Origin: a virus
IMG/VR virus record: IMGVR_UViG_3300020049_009769
Location: 1-43,063 of that record
Strand: one strand, 5' to 3'
Length of the DNA stretch: 43,063 nt
Made by a program: the position numbers and the translations under genes. This document shows positions 20,175 to 43,063 of the stretch, in pieces (position 1 is the stretch's first letter; each line of letters opens with the position of its first letter). The notes beneath the pieces were generated by a model that did no database searches, was not told where the DNA came from, and was given only the letters and a program-made list of their open reading frames with translations.

Positions 20175-21140
20175 TTAAGCTACGCGTTGATAGATAGCGC
20201 TTATCACTAATGAGCCTGCGGTATAGTCTGCTGTACCGCCTGAATAAATAGCTCTCAAATTAGCGCCAGCAGCTGTGGAAGTATTCGCAGCCGCTGAGAC
20301 GGGGTAAGGTAACCCCGTTGTACCCCAATTTGAGTTTGTTAAACTTTGCGCTGTTGCTGCTGGGATGACGCTATAAACGGTAGTTCCGTCAGTGATGCTA
20401 ATATTTCTATCACCGCCGCCGCCCGAGAAGTTTGTGCCACCGCTATTTAAGTTCATCATTCGTAATTTATATCTTTTTGAACCGCTAGAAACGATAAGCG
20501 GAACATTACCACCGGCGGCTAATGCTGCTTGACCGACGGTGACGTCAAAAGAAATTAAGTTAGCGCAAGGGTCTGGGTTTTGTGTCGTGGTTTGGATATA
20601 GCCAAAAGCATTACCTGGGTCTGCGATAGTTATATTTGTTGACTGGCCAAACGAAGCATTTTGTAAAAATGAACCATAAGGTCCTCCCTGGGTTTGGGCT
20701 CTAAAAACAAAATAACTTGCTTGTGAACCTGGGTATGATTTAAAGTTGCCACCCAAGGAAGTGCTGCCCGCTTCGATATCACCTAAATGAATCGCCGTTG
20801 TATTAGACGTAACACCTAGCGTACCTTGCGTGTCTAAAAATACCGCTAAATTATTAGCAATTGTAGGTAATACAATATCACCGCTATCAACAAACAAAGT
20901 AACAATACCGCCAGAAAAGCTAACGCCTAGCTGGATATTAGTACCAGTACCGGTTGCAGCATCATAACTATAAGTGCAATCGATAATATCAGTTTGATAT
21001 AAAGTTTGTGGCTGTATTGCTTGTAAGGTTAAATAACCCGCAGATGTAATCGCTGCTAAGTTATCAGTACTGCGTAATTTACCGCGTCTTGGTGTGTTTC
21101 CAACTTGGTTGGGTGTCCCCATATCTAAAACATAACTCAT
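20175..21140 (-). CDS. Virion-module protein of unknown role, 321 aa, inserted between portal and scaffold
   Basis: ORF track; its start overlaps the portal stop by 4 nt; S/T/G/N-rich. Confidence 0.65.
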   Translation of the reverse strand: MSYVLDMGTPNQVGNTPRRGKLRSTDNLAAITSAGYLTLQAIQPQTLYQTDIIDCTYSYDAATGTGTNIQLGVSFSGGIVTLFVDSGDIVLPTIANNLAVFLDTQGTLGVTSNTTAIHLGDIEAGSTSLGGNFKSYPGSQASYFVFRAQTQGGPYGSFLQNASFGQSTNITIADPGNAFGYIQTTTQNPDPCANLISFDVTVGQAALAAGGNVPLIVSSGSKRYKLRMMNLNSGGTNFSGGGGDRNISITDGTTVYSVIPAATAQSLTNSNWGTTGLPYPVSAAANTSTAAGANLRAIYSGGTADYTAGSLVISAIYQRVA

Positions 21141-23320
21141 TTTTTAGTTTCCTTTTTTTCAGGTTTAGTGGCTTCATGAATATTTAATAAATGTTCATGT
21201 GCTTGATTCTCTCGTTTAAGTTGCATTTCCTCGAGACTCATAACAAGCTCAGCCTGCGTTCTGCCTTCTTCGGCTTCGGCTTTTGCTTTTTGAGATTCGA
21301 CTTCTGCTAACGATACGCCTGCATTAACGAGTACTTGCATTCTATCAGTATCGTTTTTGTATTTGTCTTCTTTGAGCTGCACCAAGTCAATGACATGGTC
21401 AACGGCAGCTTGTTGCGCTTGCATATGTATTTTTTGTTGTTCGATTTTGGTTTCTTCGATTTTAGCTTTTGCAGTCGTCATTTTCGCAATCGCATCGATA
21501 ACTTCTGGGTCTGGCATTTGCGGTTTATTTGCAGCCGCTTGTTTTTGTTGTTCCATCCATTTATCGGCACGTTCTTTAACAATTTCAACGCCTTTAAATT
21601 CCATATTGTCGAACCAAATATCCATACCTTCTTGACCCATAAAAGCTTCGATTTGTGGTGAAACTTTGGTTGCCATCATGAGCTGTTCTAAGGCTTGGTT
21701 TTTAGCAATCGTGTGATTAACGCCGGGCTGAACTTTTACTTTAAGTGCATTTTCATCGTATTTGAATGGCACGCCATCGGGGGTGTTAATCTCAATATAG
21801 GAGCGCTTACCATCTTTGTGGCGAATAGGAATCGTGCGCGGAGTCACCCAAATTTTTGGAATCATATCAACAATAACTTGTAATGCTTGATTTAAACCTA
21901 ATAGATAATTAACGGTATACGGTAATGCGGTAGCGCCTGTTTGCATAGCGCCCATTTGTATTGCGCGCCCTGAAAGTTCTTTGTTTTGCACGCCCAGCTC
22001 AGCATCATAGCTACCTAAAATACTTTGTTGCATCTGCATGCTAGTACCAAAAGTCGTTAAAACTTCGCTTGGAAACGTTCCACGTGGAACGGGGGCAGGC
22101 GCAGGTAATGGTTGCGTAGGGTCGTGAGGATTGTAAGCATTATAAACTAACGTATTTGCTTGCTGTACATTTTCATACGCTTCGAGGTAGGCATCTTCTT
22201 CGGGCAATGATTCTTTTGCTACCATGAATTTATGCATAGTGAGGTTTTCATATTCATTTGCAATAACTTGACCGCTAAAATTAAGTAAGCGCTGTAAACC
22301 TTCAACGTGATATGCATAGGGCTTCGTAAATTGCGTTAATTTACTGCTATTATTTTCGCGTAATAAAACAGAATCGCCATCAACAAAAATGTAGTTCGGC
22401 TCTTTGAAATCAGTTTCTTCGTAATCGATAACTTCGCTACCGATTAATGTGTAGCGACAAAAATAACTAATCGTGGTTTTTCGTGGCTGCCCAGCAATAG
22501 CTGGTGGCTGCATCATTTCGCCTGACATTACCCACCATTCAACAAAAGCTTTGTAATCTTCCATCGTCATGACTTTGCCATTGACAAGACGAACTATAGT
22601 TTGTTTCTTACGTTTTTTCTTGTAGAAATAACAAAGTGTAATGACTTTTTCATTACCGACTTTTAAGCCCCACTGAATCGTTGAATTGCTTTTATCAAAG
22701 CTTAGCTTGCTAATATCAACATCAGGAAATTCTTCTTTAAACTCTTCCTCGGTCATGCTGCAAAGTTCACAATAATATTCAGCGTCACGCTTTGTCGGTT
22801 CTTTTGCCGCGGGGTCAAAAACAACTAAAGTAGGATCATAAACTTTTTTAAGCGTAAGTTTTTGGTTAAAACTGCGCTCATGTTCATACTCGGCTAATAC
22901 TTTAAAAACGGCAAAGCCACCTACCAAACTATCGCGATAAGTTAAATATTGCGTATTATCTTGCTGAGCTTCCCACATGATATGACGTAAGTGGCCTTCG
23001 GTAACTGCAATAGTTAGCTCGTCAACTTGCGCGCCGTCCACAGGAGAAACATCCACACCTGGTTCTTGCTTTGAAAACTCACCGCATAATCTTGAGATGG
23101 GCGCGTTGACTATATTAAATTCAATAACGGGTTTATTAAGTGCGTTTAGCGTGTCTTCATCGGCTTGTGAAAGTGCAGTTTGATAAACGAATTTTTGAAA
23201 ATGATGGAATCTATCGGCATTTGCTTTGTTAGCGGCAACAGCATCACCGACCAGTTTTTTAATATGCTCGAGTTTGTCCTTGTGGGATTTTGCAATATCG
23301 CTCAATTTTTTTATGTCCAA
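21137..23320 (-). CDS. Portal protein, P22-type, 727 aa
   Basis: Immediately downstream of terL. The long C-terminal helical/coiled-coil extension (last ~140 aa, K/E/Q/A-rich) resembles the P22 portal barrel. Confidence 0.85.
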   Translation of the reverse strand: MDIKKLSDIAKSHKDKLEHIKKLVGDAVAANKANADRFHHFQKFVYQTALSQADEDTLNALNKPVIEFNIVNAPISRLCGEFSKQEPGVDVSPVDGAQVDELTIAVTEGHLRHIMWEAQQDNTQYLTYRDSLVGGFAVFKVLAEYEHERSFNQKLTLKKVYDPTLVVFDPAAKEPTKRDAEYYCELCSMTEEEFKEEFPDVDISKLSFDKSNSTIQWGLKVGNEKVITLCYFYKKKRKKQTIVRLVNGKVMTMEDYKAFVEWWVMSGEMMQPPAIAGQPRKTTISYFCRYTLIGSEVIDYEETDFKEPNYIFVDGDSVLLRENNSSKLTQFTKPYAYHVEGLQRLLNFSGQVIANEYENLTMHKFMVAKESLPEEDAYLEAYENVQQANTLVYNAYNPHDPTQPLPAPAPVPRGTFPSEVLTTFGTSMQMQQSILGSYDAELGVQNKELSGRAIQMGAMQTGATALPYTVNYLLGLNQALQVIVDMIPKIWVTPRTIPIRHKDGKRSYIEINTPDGVPFKYDENALKVKVQPGVNHTIAKNQALEQLMMATKVSPQIEAFMGQEGMDIWFDNMEFKGVEIVKERADKWMEQQKQAAANKPQMPDPEVIDAIAKMTTAKAKIEETKIEQQKIHMQAQQAAVDHVIDLVQLKEDKYKNDTDRMQVLVNAGVSLAEVESQKAKAEAEEGRTQAELVMSLEEMQLKRENQAHEHLLNIHEATKPEKKETKK

Positions 23321-23347: not shown

Positions 23348-24919
23348 TTAACGTTTTCGCCTAATCTTATTGAGGGCTATATTTCTTGCCATGACGACAG
23401 CGGCTTTTTCATTCTCACGCTTTTCTTTATTTAGATTTTTGATATTAATTGGTCTAGCAAATGTGAGCAAAAATGCGTCAGCTGCGTCACTTGAGCGCAC
23501 GCCTCGCTTTTTCATGTCTGATTTTTTCTCAATCTTTAGCCGGTCTTTAGAGTCGTTATCATACTTTGTGTTACATAAGTCTGCGTGAAGCTCGTTGCTA
23601 TCAGGTAATTGGCACGGCATATCAAGCAACCATTCACGCCCTAAAAACCACATTTCTGCGCGCTTGTTAGTAAATCTATCCTCGTCCATGGCTCGCTCGG
23701 AAGAATTGACAGGAATAATAATGTCACCGTAACCCATTTCAACCAATCTATCGACGACACCAGCACCTAAACCGCCGACATCAATAAAAACAGCGTCGGG
23801 TTGTTCAGCGTCAATAATGCGCTTAACAATACCCGCAATTTGCATCGTATCTTTTTTCTTATAGGTCTCTAAGCCATAAGCAACGCGACCTTGACGTCTA
23901 ATAATTGCAGTACGGTCATCACCAAATCTAGCTGGGTCAACACCGAGCAATTTAGCCCCGACCCGCTCTAGATCATGCATTTTGCGAGCAGTCATAACTA
24001 GCTCTGACGGCATATAAACGTCATTGTCTGACATCACAAACGCTTCTGTCGGATTATTCGGATATTCTTGCTGAAACGCTCTTGCGCCATCTTGGCCATT
24101 AGCCGACAGCTCAGAAATCTTCATTCTTCGCCACGCAATTTGTTTGTCCGATAAGCTATAGTTATGCTTTAACTCTTCCTCTTCCTCGGTAAGCTTAAAG
24201 TTATCTGGCAATTCCATTTCGTATTCATCTTGCCAGTACCACGGTAAAAAGATTGCTTGATAAACTGATTCGCCCGATTCAGCCGCTTGCCACTGCTGAT
24301 GAAACCAGTTACCAACCCCATTAGCGGTTGACTCTAAATAAATCTCAGTGCCGGGCGCAAACGGCACCGCTTGCATAATGCCTTTACTATGTTCTGTTGC
24401 ATGAGAATAAAATGCGGCTTCGGATGCATGCAGGTATTGAATTGTGCTTGAGCGCCCTACGGCTTTATTGCCAGCGGTACCGACTTTGTAGCCTGAGTCG
24501 AGTTTATCAAAAAACAATTCTTTTGCGTTTGATGCCCCTACGCTAGGCCGCATATTGATAGGGCAATCGTCGTGAAATCGTTTCGCCATTTCAAACAAGT
24601 TTGATGTTGCTGAGTCATCATGCGTCAGAATAAATGCCCGCATACCCGGATTATGTGTAACAAACCAATATCCGCGACCTTCAATGTAAGTAGATGCGCC
24701 TTGCTGACGTCCTTTTAAGATAATTACTCTTACATAACCGTACTTTTCTCGTTGCTCTTCGATTTTTGCGTGTAAATATTTTTGTACCTTATTGAGCTTA
24801 AACGGTTCAATGCCGCCATCTTTTGGTCTAATTTTTAAACAATTTTCGGCGTAATAAGGGAAATCATGCGCCATTTTGAGGCGAATTCGTCTTTCTTTTT
24901 CGTAAGGGGTTTCAATCAT
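23348..24919 (-). CDS. terL: Terminase large subunit, 523 aa
   Basis: Walker-A-like VIILKGRQQGAST, ATPase plus C-terminal nuclease-length architecture, followed by the portal gene. Confidence 0.85.
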   Translation of the reverse strand: MIETPYEKERRIRLKMAHDFPYYAENCLKIRPKDGGIEPFKLNKVQKYLHAKIEEQREKYGYVRVIILKGRQQGASTYIEGRGYWFVTHNPGMRAFILTHDDSATSNLFEMAKRFHDDCPINMRPSVGASNAKELFFDKLDSGYKVGTAGNKAVGRSSTIQYLHASEAAFYSHATEHSKGIMQAVPFAPGTEIYLESTANGVGNWFHQQWQAAESGESVYQAIFLPWYWQDEYEMELPDNFKLTEEEEELKHNYSLSDKQIAWRRMKISELSANGQDGARAFQQEYPNNPTEAFVMSDNDVYMPSELVMTARKMHDLERVGAKLLGVDPARFGDDRTAIIRRQGRVAYGLETYKKKDTMQIAGIVKRIIDAEQPDAVFIDVGGLGAGVVDRLVEMGYGDIIIPVNSSERAMDEDRFTNKRAEMWFLGREWLLDMPCQLPDSNELHADLCNTKYDNDSKDRLKIEKKSDMKKRGVRSSDAADAFLLTFARPINIKNLNKEKRENEKAAVVMARNIALNKIRRKR

Positions 24920-25061
24920 TCCTGTCTTGTCCTATACTATGTGCGACTTAGAATGACCTTCTTTGATTAGCTTAAAACCCGTATAGTAACGTATCATCCT
25001 CCTAAGGCAATGCGAGCTCCCTGCGGGTTTAATTCAACCAAATATTTTTTTTAATTACCCA

Positions 25062-25070
25062 TGATATACT
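25062..25070 (+). promoter_or_regulatory. Extended -10 element TGaTATACT
   Basis: Read directly; plus strand, inside the ORF-free gap upstream of terL. Confidence 0.4.
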
Positions 25071-25178
25071 ACTTATGACGCTCTAAAGATAGAGCCGCAT
25101 TGTAATACTGTTGCGCGCATAGTAATGCAGCACCTGGTAAACCTCCAACTCTGCAAGCTCCCTGCGCGCATTATCTTA

Positions 25179-25187
25179 TGGTATACT
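25179..25187 (+). promoter_or_regulatory. Extended -10 element TGgTATACT, 11 nt upstream of the tRNA-like gene
   Basis: Read directly; places a start site a few nt before 25199. Confidence 0.5.
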
Positions 25188-25198
25188 GCACGCCTGAG

Positions 25199-25267
25199 GC
25201 TGAAATCAACTAATCGGTAAGACCTTTTGGTGACGAAAGGGATGCAGGTTCGACTCCTGCTTTCAGC
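25199..25267 (+). tRNA. tRNA-like gene, non-canonical (weak D stem, 8-nt anticodon loop)
   Basis: Acceptor GCTGAAA/TTTCAGC, T arm GCAGG-TTCGACT-CCTGC, and U8, A14, G18G19, A21 in register. However the D stem has only 2-3 pairs, and the CCTTT/AAAGG stem encloses TGGTGACG. Confidence 0.45.
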
Positions 25268-25306
25268 TTCTAAAACATGCCCCGATCGCGTCATCGCCAA
25301 TATACA

Positions 25307-25537
25307 TCACCTTTTTAAGTTGCTAAAAGTAATTAAGTTAACTTTACCCCCTACCTGGATGCCAACTTTTATTGTTGCAACATCTAAATCAACCGACTCA
25401 GTCATAAGACGCAATTCTGTGCTTATTGCGGCGATTATTTGATTGACGCTATCAAAACCCTTTGCGGGAACAGCCTTCACGCCATCTTCGCTAGTAATAA
25501 AACAAGTTCCGGGTTCGTAACTTTCTAAATCTTTCAT
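25307..25537 (-). CDS. Hypothetical protein; paralog of 26167-26475
   Basis: MKDLESYEPGTCFITSEDGVKAVP versus MKELESYESGTCFVAGKDGMKAVP. Internal Met chosen so the start clears the upstream stop at 25548. Confidence 0.6.
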   Translation of the reverse strand: MKDLESYEPGTCFITSEDGVKAVPAKGFDSVNQIIAAISTELRLMTESVDLDVATIKVGIQVGGKVNLITFSNLKR

Positions 25538-25547
25538 CATTCTACCC

Positions 25548-25772
25548 CTAGTCTTCAAAAACTTTAATTAACGCTCTTGTTTGCCCAGGACATGTCTCGC
25601 CAATACAGTCCATTGCCAAATGCTTAATACCTTCAATTAGAAAATCTTGGCACATCTCCCTTTTGATTACATGACCCCTCAACGTCGATCCTACCAATAT
25701 ATAAACCGCATCTATTAATTTTTCTTTAAGTTCTAAAATATCTTTATGCTTATCAATTAAACCATTTTGCAT
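25548..25772 (-). CDS. Hypothetical protein, 74 aa
   Basis: ORF track; its start abuts the terS stop. Confidence 0.6.
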   Translation of the reverse strand: MQNGLIDKHKDILELKEKLIDAVYILVGSTLRGHVIKREMCQDFLIEGIKHLAMDCIGETCPGQTRALIKVFED

Positions 25773-26170
25773 TATTCTATCTCCTGCGTACCAACATCTT
25801 TAATCTTCTTGCGCGCTTTATAGTCAATTTCTTGCAACCATTCCTCGTGACTAAATCCTGTATGCTGCTCTTGTGTAACACCGTCACGCCATTTGCCTTT
25901 GGCTCTTAGATAAAACATTTGAGCTTGTACACTGCCATTGCATGCAGCTTCAAATAATGCGCTAGCAACTGTCGCTATACCAACGGATTTGCCATATTCT
26001 TCAAGTCGTTTAACGTCTGAGTGATTTGCTAATTGTTTTTTATCAATTCTTTCTTCGGAGCTTATAATATTATAAATATCCTCCGAATCAACGCCATTTT
26101 TTGCAAGCTCTGCAATATGCTCTATTGTGCTAGGCGTTAATGAGATTTGTTTTTTAAGTTGTTTTGTCAA
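25772..26170 (-). CDS. terS: Terminase small subunit, 132 aa
   Basis: N-terminal HTH-like segment plus AQMFYLRAKGKWRD, the FWLKNRxGWRD-type motif common in small terminases; upstream of terL. Confidence 0.65.
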   Translation of the reverse strand: MTKQLKKQISLTPSTIEHIAELAKNGVDSEDIYNIISSEERIDKKQLANHSDVKRLEEYGKSVGIATVASALFEAACNGSVQAQMFYLRAKGKWRDGVTQEQHTGFSHEEWLQEIDYKARKKIKDVGTQEIE

Positions 26171-26475
26171 AGCAGGTCACCCGCTTTAATTCTATCGCCA
26201 TGAGGAAATATGTCATCTTCGAGAGTAATAGATAAAAAATCCACATCGCTAAAATCCGGTTTTACCATGACCTTAAGAGCCGATGAATATAAGCCGCTAT
26301 CCATGTTAATAGTAAAATATTTCGCTTGCGCTCCATCAAGAAAGAAGTGCACATGCTCATCAATGCGATTTATGATTTTCCGTCTAACCTCAAGATAACC
26401 CGGAGGAACAGCCTTCATGCCATCCTTACCAGCAACAAAACAAGTTCCAGACTCATAACTTTCAAGTTCTTTCAT
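26167..26475 (-). CDS. Hypothetical protein, 102 aa; paralog of 25307-25537
   Basis: Shared N-terminal 25 aa and ~72 bp of ~80% identical DNA (26404-26475 versus 25467-25537). Confidence 0.65.
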   Translation of the reverse strand: MKELESYESGTCFVAGKDGMKAVPPGYLEVRRKIINRIDEHVHFFLDGAQAKYFTINMDSGLYSSALKVMVKPDFSDVDFLSITLEDDIFPHGDRIKAGDLL

Positions 26476-26513
26476 TTGCGCATATGCTCCTATTTTTAAA
26501 TTGTTTCGTCATA

Positions 26514-26855
26514 TTAAATATTTAATTTGTCTTTAATAAAATAATCAAACAAATCAGGGTATCGCTCTTTTATCAAAGCAAATAAGAAAGTAATAAAATC
26601 AGCTTCAGAATTAGGTATGAAATCTATTTTTAAAATTGAATTTTCTGGGTCTTTTTTATCTACATACCAAGTAGATTCTAGATAACTTACACCAACAAAC
26701 CCCATCGCAAAATTATTTGGAAAATCTTTTAATTGCTTACTGATATTTTCAATGTTTTTTTTAAAAAAATAGGCTTTTTCAGCTTTTTGAAATAGCCTGA
26801 CCTGTTTTTCTATTTCATTCTCAGCGCTTTCAAATTCTTTTTCAAGTTCTTTCAT
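26514..26855 (-). CDS. Hypothetical protein, 113 aa
   Basis: ORF track; same first 15 nt (atgaaagaacttgaa) as the 26475 gene. Confidence 0.6.
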   Translation of the reverse strand: MKELEKEFESAENEIEKQVRLFQKAEKAYFFKKNIENISKQLKDFPNNFAMGFVGVSYLESTWYVDKKDPENSILKIDFIPNSEADFITFLFALIKERYPDLFDYFIKDKLNI

Positions 26856-27012
26856 TTTTTAACAACCTATGTAATTTAGTCTCTTGCGGTATCCTAAATT
26901 CATTATTAAACTTAGGCTCTCCGTAATTTTCTTTGAACCATTTTAAATAATTAGTCATATTGTATTCTTTTAAATCATATTCTTTCGTTTTTTCCCCTTC
27001 TTTTAGTGGCAT
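26842..27012 (-). CDS. Hypothetical small protein, 56 aa
   Basis: Hand translated: MPLKEGEKTKEYDLKEYNMTNYLKWFKENYGEPKFNNEFRIPQETKLHRLLKNERT. AGAGGA RBS 6 nt upstream. Confidence 0.45.
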   Translation of the reverse strand: MPLKEGEKTKEYDLKEYNMTNYLKWFKENYGEPKFNNEFRIPQETKLHRLLKNERT

Positions 27013-29396: not shown

Positions 29397-29425
29397 TTGA
29401 CATACTGATTTTAGTTAGCTATACT
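29397..29425 (+). promoter_or_regulatory. Early promoter TTGACA-N17-TATACT
   Basis: Read directly; ~58 nt upstream of the first early ATG (29484). Confidence 0.75.
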
Positions 29426-38600: not shown

Positions 38601-38813
38601 TTATTCGTCTTTTTTTGCTTTGGCTTCTTTAGCTTTTAAATAATTCCCCCGTCTTTTTTTTTGGTAAACCGCATTATTTTCTAAACTGCACCCGTGACAA
38701 CTTCCGCTACTTGTGTATCTTTCTTCAATATGTCCACGTGAACATGGTTTACCCGTATAGTATTTGGTAAGCCCATTTTTTATAGCCTCAACTCTCGATA
38801 TTAATTTCATCAA
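38601..38813 (-). CDS. Small Zn-ribbon protein, 70 aa, basic C-terminus
   Basis: YYTGKPCSRGHIEERYTSSGSCHGC (C-x3-H...C-x2-C); monocistronic, lying between its own promoter and terminator. Confidence 0.65.
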   Translation of the reverse strand: MMKLISRVEAIKNGLTKYYTGKPCSRGHIEERYTSSGSCHGCSLENNAVYQKKRRGNYLKAKEAKAKKDE

Positions 38814-38842: not shown

Positions 38843-38871
38843 TTGACAAAAGTATTGTAGTCAATTATACT
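38843..38871 (+). promoter_or_regulatory. Promoter TTGACA-N17-TATACT for the replication/recombination/lysis operon
   Basis: Read directly; same architecture as the early promoter at 29397. Confidence 0.75.
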
Positions 38872-42703: not shown

Positions 42704-42975
42704 TTTATGATAGCGCGCCATCAGATTTTTTAAATGAAAAAATTGAGATTGTAATTACAAGATTTGTGCCTGATTTAGAAAACCCAGGCTCAGATAGTGG
42801 TTTATATGGCATAAATGTTCGCACTCAATTTGAAGAGGGTGTTTGGTATTCCTACGGCATTCCTGACCCTGTTACAGTAGAGTCCGTTATCGAAAAGCTT
42901 ATGGGTGTTTACAATACGGCTAAAAAGCAAAATGAAATGAGAAAAGATACATTGATTACGGAGTTTGTTAAATGA
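42700..42975 (+). CDS. Hypothetical protein, 91 aa
   Basis: ORF track; no TM segment; ends in EFVK like the endolysin candidate. Confidence 0.65.
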   Translation: MIYDSAPSDFLNEKIEIVITRFVPDLENPGSDSGLYGINVRTQFEEGVWYSYGIPDPVTVESVIEKLMGVYNTAKKQNEMRKDTLITEFVK

Positions 42976-43063
42976 GCTCAGATTGTTGTGATGGTTTTTT
43001 AACTGTTCTTTTTCTTATACTAATATTTGTATCAGTTAGACATACTTGCCATTATGTACATGA
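42943..43063. repeat. Terminal overlap, identical to 1-121
   Basis: Read directly. Confidence 0.95.
42972..43063 (+). CDS. 5' part of the 47-aa TM protein gene, truncated by the window end (complete copy at 30-173)
   Basis: Same sequence as 30-121. Confidence 0.6.
   Translation, partial: MSSDCCDGFLTVLFLILIFVSVRHTCHYVH

Follow-up and report, generated by a model that had tools for sequence, protein, structure and literature searches.

A tRNA-like element of probable tRNA-Thr origin in a non-coding island antisense to the packaging genes of a metagenomic phage

What does a tRNA-like sequence do within the packaging operon of a small phage genome, on the strand opposite to the packaging genes? 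In this study, we revisited the 387 bp gap between terL and the next gene upstream in the phage genome IMGVR_UViG_3300020049_009769, an IMG/VR record that was analysed over its whole length of 43,063 nucleotides (the window). It had been predicted from the sequence alone that the plus strand of this gap carries a promoter-equipped, non-canonical tRNA-like gene, which might be an unusual decoding tRNA, a tRNA mimic or the 3' module of a longer RNA. We class the element as tRNA-derived and tRNA-like rather than as a tRNA. The reading that we favour, tentatively and at somewhat less than even strength, is that it specifies a transcribed small RNA, a mimic derived from tRNA-Thr, which would lie within a non-coding RNA island of three modules and would not serve as a standard decoder.

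The homology of the element to tRNA is statistically real. The Rfam tRNA model RF00005 matches 25199-25268 on the plus strand with 31.0 bits against a gathering score of 29, at an E-value of 0.011 when the whole window is searched with all 4227 families and of 1.4e-4 when a region of 551 nt is searched; tRNA is the sole family above its gathering score in the window and the sole family at E <= 10 in the 551 nt region. Because of these E-values, a pure chance resemblance is excluded. Typical tRNAs score well over 31 bits, and by that measure the match is marginal; since it exceeds the gathering threshold, however, the score does not lie at background level, the outcome that had been held to speak against the prediction, and a tRNA-related sequence on the plus strand, antisense to the packaging genes, is supported by it. 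At default settings ARAGORN calls no gene, and only at -ps90 or below does it report the element, as 'tRNA-Ser(tga)', with a cloverleaf made up of an 8 bp acceptor stem, a 2 bp D stem, the loop GGUGACG, a 3 nt variable loop and a perfect T arm.

The coordinates and sequence features of the original prediction all proved correct when checked against the window. The perfect 7 bp acceptor stem can indeed be extended to 10 bp (25196-25205 with 25261-25270), one of these pairs being G.U; the T arm is canonical, and U8, A14, G18G19 and A21 are in register. The D stem, for which two to three pairs had been predicted, has two (C12-G23 and U13-A22), with A10.C25 and A11.A24 mismatched. The anticodon hairpin pairs perfectly over 5-7 bp and both of the registers proposed for its loop are found, one of 8 nt and one of 7 nt (GGTGACG), the latter with G33 and C37 and so without U33 and without a purine at 37; the Rfam alignment treats the loop as 6 nt. 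Position 26 is occupied by C and is not standard. Folding of the element with RNAfold gives a z-score of -4.05 on the plus strand versus -1.24 on the minus strand.

Measured against a canonical tRNA, the element has the 7 bp acceptor stem, the 5 bp T stem and a T loop of the TTCRANY type, and its D loop fits, whereas it lacks a D stem of 3-4 bp with G10 and Y11-R24, a 7 nt anticodon loop with both U33 and a purine at 37, and a class I variable loop of at least 4 nt (here 3 nt). We use the name tRNA-like because D stem, anticodon loop and variable loop all fail and the default tRNA finder rejects the sequence. It also departs from the known quadruplet or +1 suppressors, in that the body beyond the 8 nt loop is non-canonical as well (PMC4238358). 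With regard to tRNA-Thr identity, the pairs G1-C72 and C2-G71 are present and the loop holds UUGGUGA, a GGU (Thr) anticodon context, out of the standard register; if the last U-A pair of the anticodon stem is opened, the loop reads UUGGUGA followed by CGA, that is, a standard tRNA-Thr(GGU) context and then three extra nucleotides. The inner region of the element carries no clear isotype signal. A transfer-messenger RNA (tmRNA) was considered and rejected, as the tmRNA mode of ARAGORN finds none even when relaxed and there is no Rfam tmRNA match.

A tRNA-Thr-type origin is supported by comparison with other tRNAs. In a pattern scan of IMG/VR and genomes, 121 of the 126 tRNAs with the same acceptor stem are tRNA-Thr. 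The nearest 3' halves, identical at 23 of 24 positions, belong to three phage-borne tRNAs in IMG/VR, two of which (L079 and L081) are tRNA-Thr(UGU) and the third (L077) a tRNA-Arg(UCU) that has the same body. A covariance model built from the element alone (R1) retrieves only genuine tRNAs, the top one being the phage tRNA-Thr L079 with 46 bits. When the element was compared by an unbiased blastn with GenBank phages, matches were confined to the 3' half (T arm and 3' acceptor strand), and those extending into the acceptor strand are annotated tRNA-Thr genes of rV5-like phages, with weak E-values of 0.2-0.6. Aligned with L079, the element is identical at 16 of 17 positions in the T arm, at 7 of 8 in the D loop and nearly throughout the acceptor stem, whereas the D stem, position 26, the anticodon arm and the variable loop differ about as much as random sequence would. 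What emerges is a mosaic of a canonical top half (G1-C72, C2-G71) and elbow with a remodelled decoding half, the helices being intact throughout. Since three perfect helices would not survive a neutral decay that acted uniformly, selection would appear to have acted on RNA structure and not on decoding features, and the mosaic is one to be expected of an RNA that has to be recognised as tRNA-shaped and has been freed from decoding.

Two side observations concern the relatives and possible neighbours of the element. The tRNA-Arg(UCU) gene of L077 (2098-2173) has the acceptor stem and T arm common to the phage tRNA-Thr(UGU) genes and the element, which suggests that anticodons have been switched on one body shared among phage tRNAs. 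Within the gap, a perfect small hairpin (GCTCTA-AAGA-TAGAGC, 25082-25097 on the plus strand) has a GCTC/GAGC stem that is the usual D stem of tRNA-Thr, and the ATTGTAAT that comes next resembles a UGU anticodon loop; this hairpin, which lies between the second -10-like site and the hairpin B described below, may be a remnant of a second tRNA, a reading that no model supports.

The tRNA-like element is not the only structured sequence in the gap. The original prediction had noted a 14 nt motif that occurs twice, at 25012-25025 and 25153-25166, and this is indeed so (0.18 occurrences expected). The motif is not free-standing: it forms part of two paralogous hairpins of about 57 nt, A and B, each of which carries ATAGTAA together with the motif (GCGAGCTCCCTGCG in A, GCAAGCTCCCTGCG in B), and it is for this reason that we describe a three-module island rather than one gene. 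Both hairpins are built from an 8-9 bp closing stem, a bulge, a 3 bp stem, a 2 nt interior loop, a 5 bp stem and an apical stem-loop. Hairpin A folds with -19.1 kcal/mol (z = -3.40 on the plus strand versus -0.41 on the minus strand) and hairpin B with -24.0 kcal/mol (z = -3.78 versus -3.0), and a second covariance model (R2) scores them with 81 and 91.5 bits, respectively. In their alignment 33 of 34 pair cells hold standard pairs, five pairs have changed on both sides and two on one side via G.U, and slid controls all collapse. For two sequences only, this is suggestive of compensatory evolution and not conclusive; compensatory changes would in turn mean that structured RNA, or DNA hairpins, in the island are under selection. 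The G.U pairs of the three elements would become A.C mismatches on the minus strand, and the preference for plus-strand folding, with predicted z <= -3.4 for all three, supports a plus-strand RNA. Because U-rich tracts follow both hairpins, A and B may be terminator-like. The short sequences GGTAA[A/G]ACCT and CTCC(C)TGC hint that the hairpins and the tRNA-like element could themselves be paralogous; covariance model R1 does not match the hairpins. The 12-mer found at 38748-38759 does not represent a third copy of the hairpin.

Each of the three structured elements is preceded by a TATACT hexamer (at 24933, 25065 and 25182). Of the claim that the tRNA-like gene is promoter-equipped, the extended -10-like sequences themselves stand, and the window holds six extended -10 sites where 1.67 are expected; they are consensus matches only, and a triple cluster of TATACT hexamers is no rarity in shuffled sequence. 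From the site nearest the element, a transcript would start at about 25194-25196, the 5' end of the 10 bp stem. TATACT is a plausible -10 in this host because the two clearest sigma-70 promoters of the window (TTGACA-17-TATACT, 29397-29425 and 38843-38871, both on the plus strand), which are near-perfect and head the plus-strand early blocks, carry it; it appears to be the -10 that the phage prefers. The proposal of a single RNA of about 190 nt that runs from the first promoter into the tRNA-like element is weakened, since hairpin B with its U-rich tail and a second -10-like site intervene.

The gap as a whole is a further part of the argument. It holds no credible open reading frame (ORF), as had been predicted: its sole long ORF, 25073-25300 on the minus strand (75 aa, TTG start, rich in Arg and Cys), finds nothing in PHROG and Pfam, and a coding role for the gap was rejected given that this ORF and the plus-strand ORFs of 31 aa and 71 aa are all without support. 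The G+C content climbs to 0.48-0.51 over 25075-25299, as against 0.37 for the genome. In all 12 TerL relatives that were examined, the upstream gene of the same strand adjoins or overlaps terL, and because none of them has a gap there we regard the 387 bp island as a lineage-specific insertion. The slot upstream of terL (between terS and terL where terS could be identified) varies among the relatives, its contents being packed tightly against terL and including an HD-domain protein, a sigma-70 region-4 protein, a ParB-methyltransferase and various ORFans. Judged from these genome comparisons, this phage alone has acquired the island, at a place between terS and terL where accessory genes vary. 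As regards the features of a moron, an independent transcription unit inserted in the late operon of a phage, insertion in one lineage is found (12 of 12 relatives without a gap), and the promoters and terminators are no more than consensus-like.

On these grounds, the proposed mechanism is as follows. The island would consist of three plus-strand modules, each a structured RNA behind a TATACT -10-like hexamer, with the tRNA-like element in last place. Host sigma-70 RNA polymerase would transcribe the modules early, in the same direction and from the same TATACT -10 as the early genes. The tRNA-like RNA would retain surfaces for RNase P, for 3' trimming and CCA-adding enzymes, for T-loop modifiers and possibly for threonyl-tRNA synthetase (ThrRS), and by virtue of these it would accumulate as a stable tRNA mimic. 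Such a mimic may serve to titrate a tRNA-binding factor, as a decoy or sponge, or else give the hairpin RNAs next to it a handle for processing; it would not take part in ordinary delivery of threonine at ACY codons.

Several results weigh against the reading as a transcribed tRNA-Thr-derived mimic. In addition to the lack of a default ARAGORN call, a triple TATACT cluster appears in 979 of 2000 block shuffles (49 %), and for this reason the cluster is no evidence by itself; furthermore, no -35 elements accompany the -10-like sites of the island, and no terminator lies 3' of the tRNA-like element. The identity of the top half is in part built in, because the pattern with which the comparison tRNAs were fetched fixed the acceptor stem and the T loop. 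A one-step chimeric swap of the bottom half could yield the same mosaic without any function. No gene for tRNA repair, tRNA modification or another tRNA-related function is found among the phage ORFs scanned. Finally, neither for the element nor for the hairpins was a homologue found in INPHARED, in IMG/VR, in the metagenome scan or at 159 loci of TerL relatives, and since the element is a single sequence without homologues, covariation cannot show selection on it.

The searches behind this last point covered sequence and structure. The gap has no blastn match in GenBank phages, the exact 3' half of the element occurs 0 times in IMG/VR, a loop-anchored pattern occurs 0 times in the metagenome collection, from which the contig itself is evidently absent too, and an acceptor-anchored pattern retrieves normal tRNAs only from IMG/VR and genomes. 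Loci of TerL relatives (75 from IMG/VR, 80 from metagenomes and three from Logan) were scanned with ARAGORN at default and relaxed settings, blastn and covariance models R1 and R2, and the closest also with Rfam; none has a tRNA-like element or hairpin near terL. A pattern for the hairpin motif gave one match in IMG/VR, which was rejected: it lies inside a coding sequence and lacks the stems, and by our own estimate about four such matches are expected by chance.

The main alternative is that the element is a decaying relic, either a phage tRNA-Thr gene or a recombined fragment of one, that has lost its function; the hexamers and hairpins would then be left over from a former tRNA cluster, or be unrelated to it, and the island would be no more than spacer or a terminator of stray transcription. 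We consider this unlikely, yet it has to be taken seriously. It would explain the borderline score (31 versus 29) and the default rejection by ARAGORN, the simultaneous failure of several defining tRNA features, the weak promoter evidence, and the occurrence of the element as a singleton, conserved nowhere among the collections searched and lying beside ORFans in a variable accessory slot. It does not sit well with the state of the helices. The acceptor (7/7 pairs and three more), T (5/5) and anticodon (5-7) helices are perfect and unpaired decoding positions have been lost, whereas random decay as extensive as that of the bottom half ought to have broken helices too. Significant plus-strand folding in all three elements and the apparent compensatory evolution of hairpins A and B are likewise not expected of a relic, and 387 bp of junk within a packaging operon would rarely be kept by a small phage genome.

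A more specific variant of the mimic reading, and in our view quite an improbable one, is that of a mimic purpose-built on tRNA-Thr(GGU) and directed at a host factor that acts on tRNA-Thr, either as an uncleavable decoy or as a +1-shifting decoder, with the hairpin RNAs belonging to the same early counter-defence island. In this variant the factor would still bind the RNA by way of the retained acceptor stem, T arm, elbow and GGU-bearing loop, and it is the rebuilt anticodon arm that would turn the RNA into a decoy or a shifter. The factor bound could be an anticodon nuclease, an ADP-ribosyltransferase or another defence effector, or ThrRS.

It is very doubtful that the element is a working, non-canonical tRNA-Thr(GGU), charged by ThrRS via G1-C72, C2-G71, G35 and U36, which would read +1 or quadruplet at ACC-N or resist a host enzyme that attacks the anticodon loop. 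The acceptor pairs G1-C72 and C2-G71, which we take to be identity pairs for the ThrRS of Escherichia coli, speak for it. If the last stem pair opens, UUGGUGA gives the canonical context Y32-U33-GGU-R37-A38, and a U-NGU-R arrangement in some register of a random loop would be expected in about 4 % of cases by our own estimate. There are also precedents in the suppressors sufJ and SufA6 (PMC4238358), in phage tRNAs proposed to evade anticodon nucleases (PMC10264068) and in a toxin directed at tRNA-Thr(GGU) (PMC13617354). However, the laboratory suppressors are otherwise normal tRNAs (PMC4238358), whereas here the body is non-canonical (2 bp D stem, 3 nt variable loop, C26), and neither of the stable registers places both U33 and a purine at 37. 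Threonine codon usage is unremarkable (ACC 20 %, ACU 28 %), and a codon-supply role was rejected on the same ground. No gene split in a way that would call for a +1 shift was noticed, the adjacent ORF pair alone having been inspected; that pair (25548-25772 and 25307-25558) needs no shift, as it is explained by an internal ATG start common to the paralogue of the latter.

The least credible alternative is that the island acts at the DNA level or on the minus strand, as a packaging site, protein-binding repeats, a tRNA-derived attachment site or a terminator or antiterminator of the late operon, its likeness to tRNA being a matter of ancestry: the position between terS and terL is a frequent place of packaging signals, there are repeated motifs and an A/T-rich palindromic tract (25040-25057), hairpin A has an A-tract on one side and a T-tract on the other, as a bidirectional terminator does, and tRNA-Thr genes are common integration targets; against this, there is no integrase or recombinase among the ORFs scanned, an att core would have no need of a 5' acceptor strand, a D loop or an anticodon hairpin, folding favours the plus strand over the minus-strand mRNA, the G.U pairs among the compensatory changes in hairpins A and B suit RNA better than duplex DNA sites, and the packaging machinery does not need the island, because the gap is absent from relatives whose TerL and portal are of the same type. 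A tRNA-derived attP in particular was rejected, with no integrase among 40 ORFs scanned and with the 5' acceptor strand and the D loop also kept.

How, then, does a tRNA-Thr-derived mimic compare with what is known? Its closest likeness is to the phage tRNA-Thr(UGU) genes (L079, L081 and the tRNA-Thr of rV5-like coliphages), whose acceptor stem GCUGAAA/UUUCAGC, T arm and D loop it matches; unlike these genes, the element stands alone, outside any large-phage tRNA cluster. The suppressor sufJ is a tRNA-Thr(GGU) with an additional C31.5 and an 8 nt anticodon loop, and in SufA6 the insertion lies 3' of the anticodon, between positions 37 and 38 (PMC4238358). The element resembles them in being of the Thr type and in holding GGU in a loop of more than 7 nt, with the extra nucleotides on the 3' side as in SufA6. 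Both are, however, laboratory-selected single-insertion mutants of normal tRNAs, whereas in the element the D stem is degenerate and the variable loop shortened as well. It has been proposed that phage tRNAs with changes in the anticodon loop evade anticodon nucleases (PMC10264068), and evasion of tRNA-targeting defences by such altered loops has been proposed or shown (PMC10264068; PMC11555353); in addition, there is a toxin that specifically ADP-ribosylates the anticodon of tRNA-Thr(GGU) (PMC13617354). As in the element, the differences of these defence-evading tRNAs from cellular tRNAs are concentrated in the anticodon loop, but the published examples keep a 7 nt loop, a canonical body and decoding, whereas the decoding competence of the element is doubtful.

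Among non-decoding RNAs, the C4 RNA of P1/P7 and the CI RNA of P4 are tRNA-like regulatory RNAs of phages and plasmids that are processed by RNase P, Rfam having a C4 antisense RNA family, and the tRNA cluster of T4 holds small stable RNAs. Like C4 and CI, the element would be a phage RNA of small size that bears an acceptor-like stem, has its own (here putative) promoter and plays a non-decoding role, and it may be an RNase P substrate; it differs in being clearly tRNA-derived, in having no Rfam match other than tRNA and in lacking a complementary target of more than 12 nt in the genome. An antisense RNA of the C4/CI type was rejected for want of a family match, the longest complementarities in the genome, of 11-12 nt, being those of chance and lying outside plausible mRNAs.

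Phage tRNAs are now regarded as weapons against tRNA-targeting immunity, the documented cases being decoding tRNAs with small changes in the anticodon loop. If the mimic reading is true, this idea would widen to non-decoding tRNA decoys, here an RNA in which nothing but the half of tRNA-Thr that proteins recognise is retained. The GGU context with the enlarged loop also makes a natural, sufJ-like frameshifter conceivable. The case also illustrates that borderline covariance-model matches can be real tRNA derivatives missed by standard tRNA finders. Its value is that of a well-defined candidate, a single sequence in one metagenomic phage. The coordinates of all features are collected in Table 1.

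Table 1. Features of the island, the surrounding genes and the corresponding slot in relatives (positions in the window unless a locus is named)
Feature	Position	Strand	Remarks
Non-coding island	24920-25306		387 bp, from terL to the ORFan 25307-25558
TATACT hexamer, module 0	24933-24938	+	Without TG extension; overlaps a TTGTCC-16-TAGAAT match (24927-24954); consensus match only
Hairpin A	24975-25030	+	9 bp closing stem AAACCCGTA/TGCGGGTTT, 3 bp and 5 bp inner stems, U-rich tail
Extended -10-like TGATATACT, module 1	25062-25070	+	After A/T-rich tract 25040-25057; consensus match only
Hairpin B	25112-25170	+	Closing stem TGCGCGCA/TGCGCGCA, inner stem TGCAG/CTGCA, then TTATCTTAT
Extended -10-like TGGTATACT, module 2	25179-25187	+	11 nt upstream of tRNA position 1; consensus match only
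tRNA-like element, probably tRNA-Thr-derived	25196-25270	+	Extended 10 bp closing stem; core tRNA match 25199-25268
Acceptor stem	25199-25205 with 25261-25267	+	GCTGAAA/TTTCAGC, 7 bp
D region	25208-25223	+	2 bp stem; loop AATCGGTA
Anticodon arm	25223-25240	+	CCTTT-TGGTGACG-AAAGG; 8 nt loop
Variable loop	25241-25243	+	GAT, 3 nt
T arm	25244-25260	+	GCAGG-TTCGACT-CCTGC; 5 bp stem
Discriminator	25268	+	T; no CCA encoded
Upstream ORFan	25307-25558	-	83 aa; adjoins the gap
terS (weak match)	25772-26170	- (block)	
terL	23348-24919	-	
P22-type portal	21137-23320	- (block)	
Accessory slot in relatives	L001 2770-3992; L285 1600-2501; L284 265-2504		

The window, a contig from a JGI metagenome, has an exact repeat of 121 bp at its two ends (1-121 and 42943-43063) and represents a complete phage genome of about 42.94 kb that is either assembled as a circle or terminally redundant. 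It is a 43 kb podovirus-type genome, in which a minus-strand block that runs from about 29.1 kb down to 1.9 kb encodes RusA, small ORFs, terS, TerL, the P22-type portal and a head-closure protein, and plus-strand early genes, including those for Sak4, Gam and an HD phosphohydrolase, follow from 29.5 kb on. The closest TerL relative among 5.8 billion proteins is only 64 % identical, and since none exceeds this value the phage is an orphan inside a large family of 35-42 kb phages. The 83 aa protein next to the gap has no homologue in the same 5.8 billion proteins, its sole relative being a paralogue on the other side of terS: the small ORFan proteins encoded at 25307-25558 and 26167-26475, both on the minus strand, share 38 % identity over 58 aa and a common N-terminus (MK[D/E]LESYE.GTCF). 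The 83 aa ORFan probably starts at an internal ATG, which would give a protein of 76 aa.

Two minor observations concern this block and its terminase. Upstream of terS, the stretch 26425-26950 is A/T-rich (G+C of 0.23-0.29 versus 0.37 for the genome) and contains small minus-strand ORFs. Among the TerL homologues, P0017 (879 aa), P0021, P0025 (784 aa), P0038 and P0111 (about 900 aa) are 260-380 aa longer than the others, and two of these long homologues have Pfam matches to PF14528 and PF14890, presumably a LAGLIDADG and an intein-splicing domain, which suggests that inteins have been inserted in the terminase of this TerL family.

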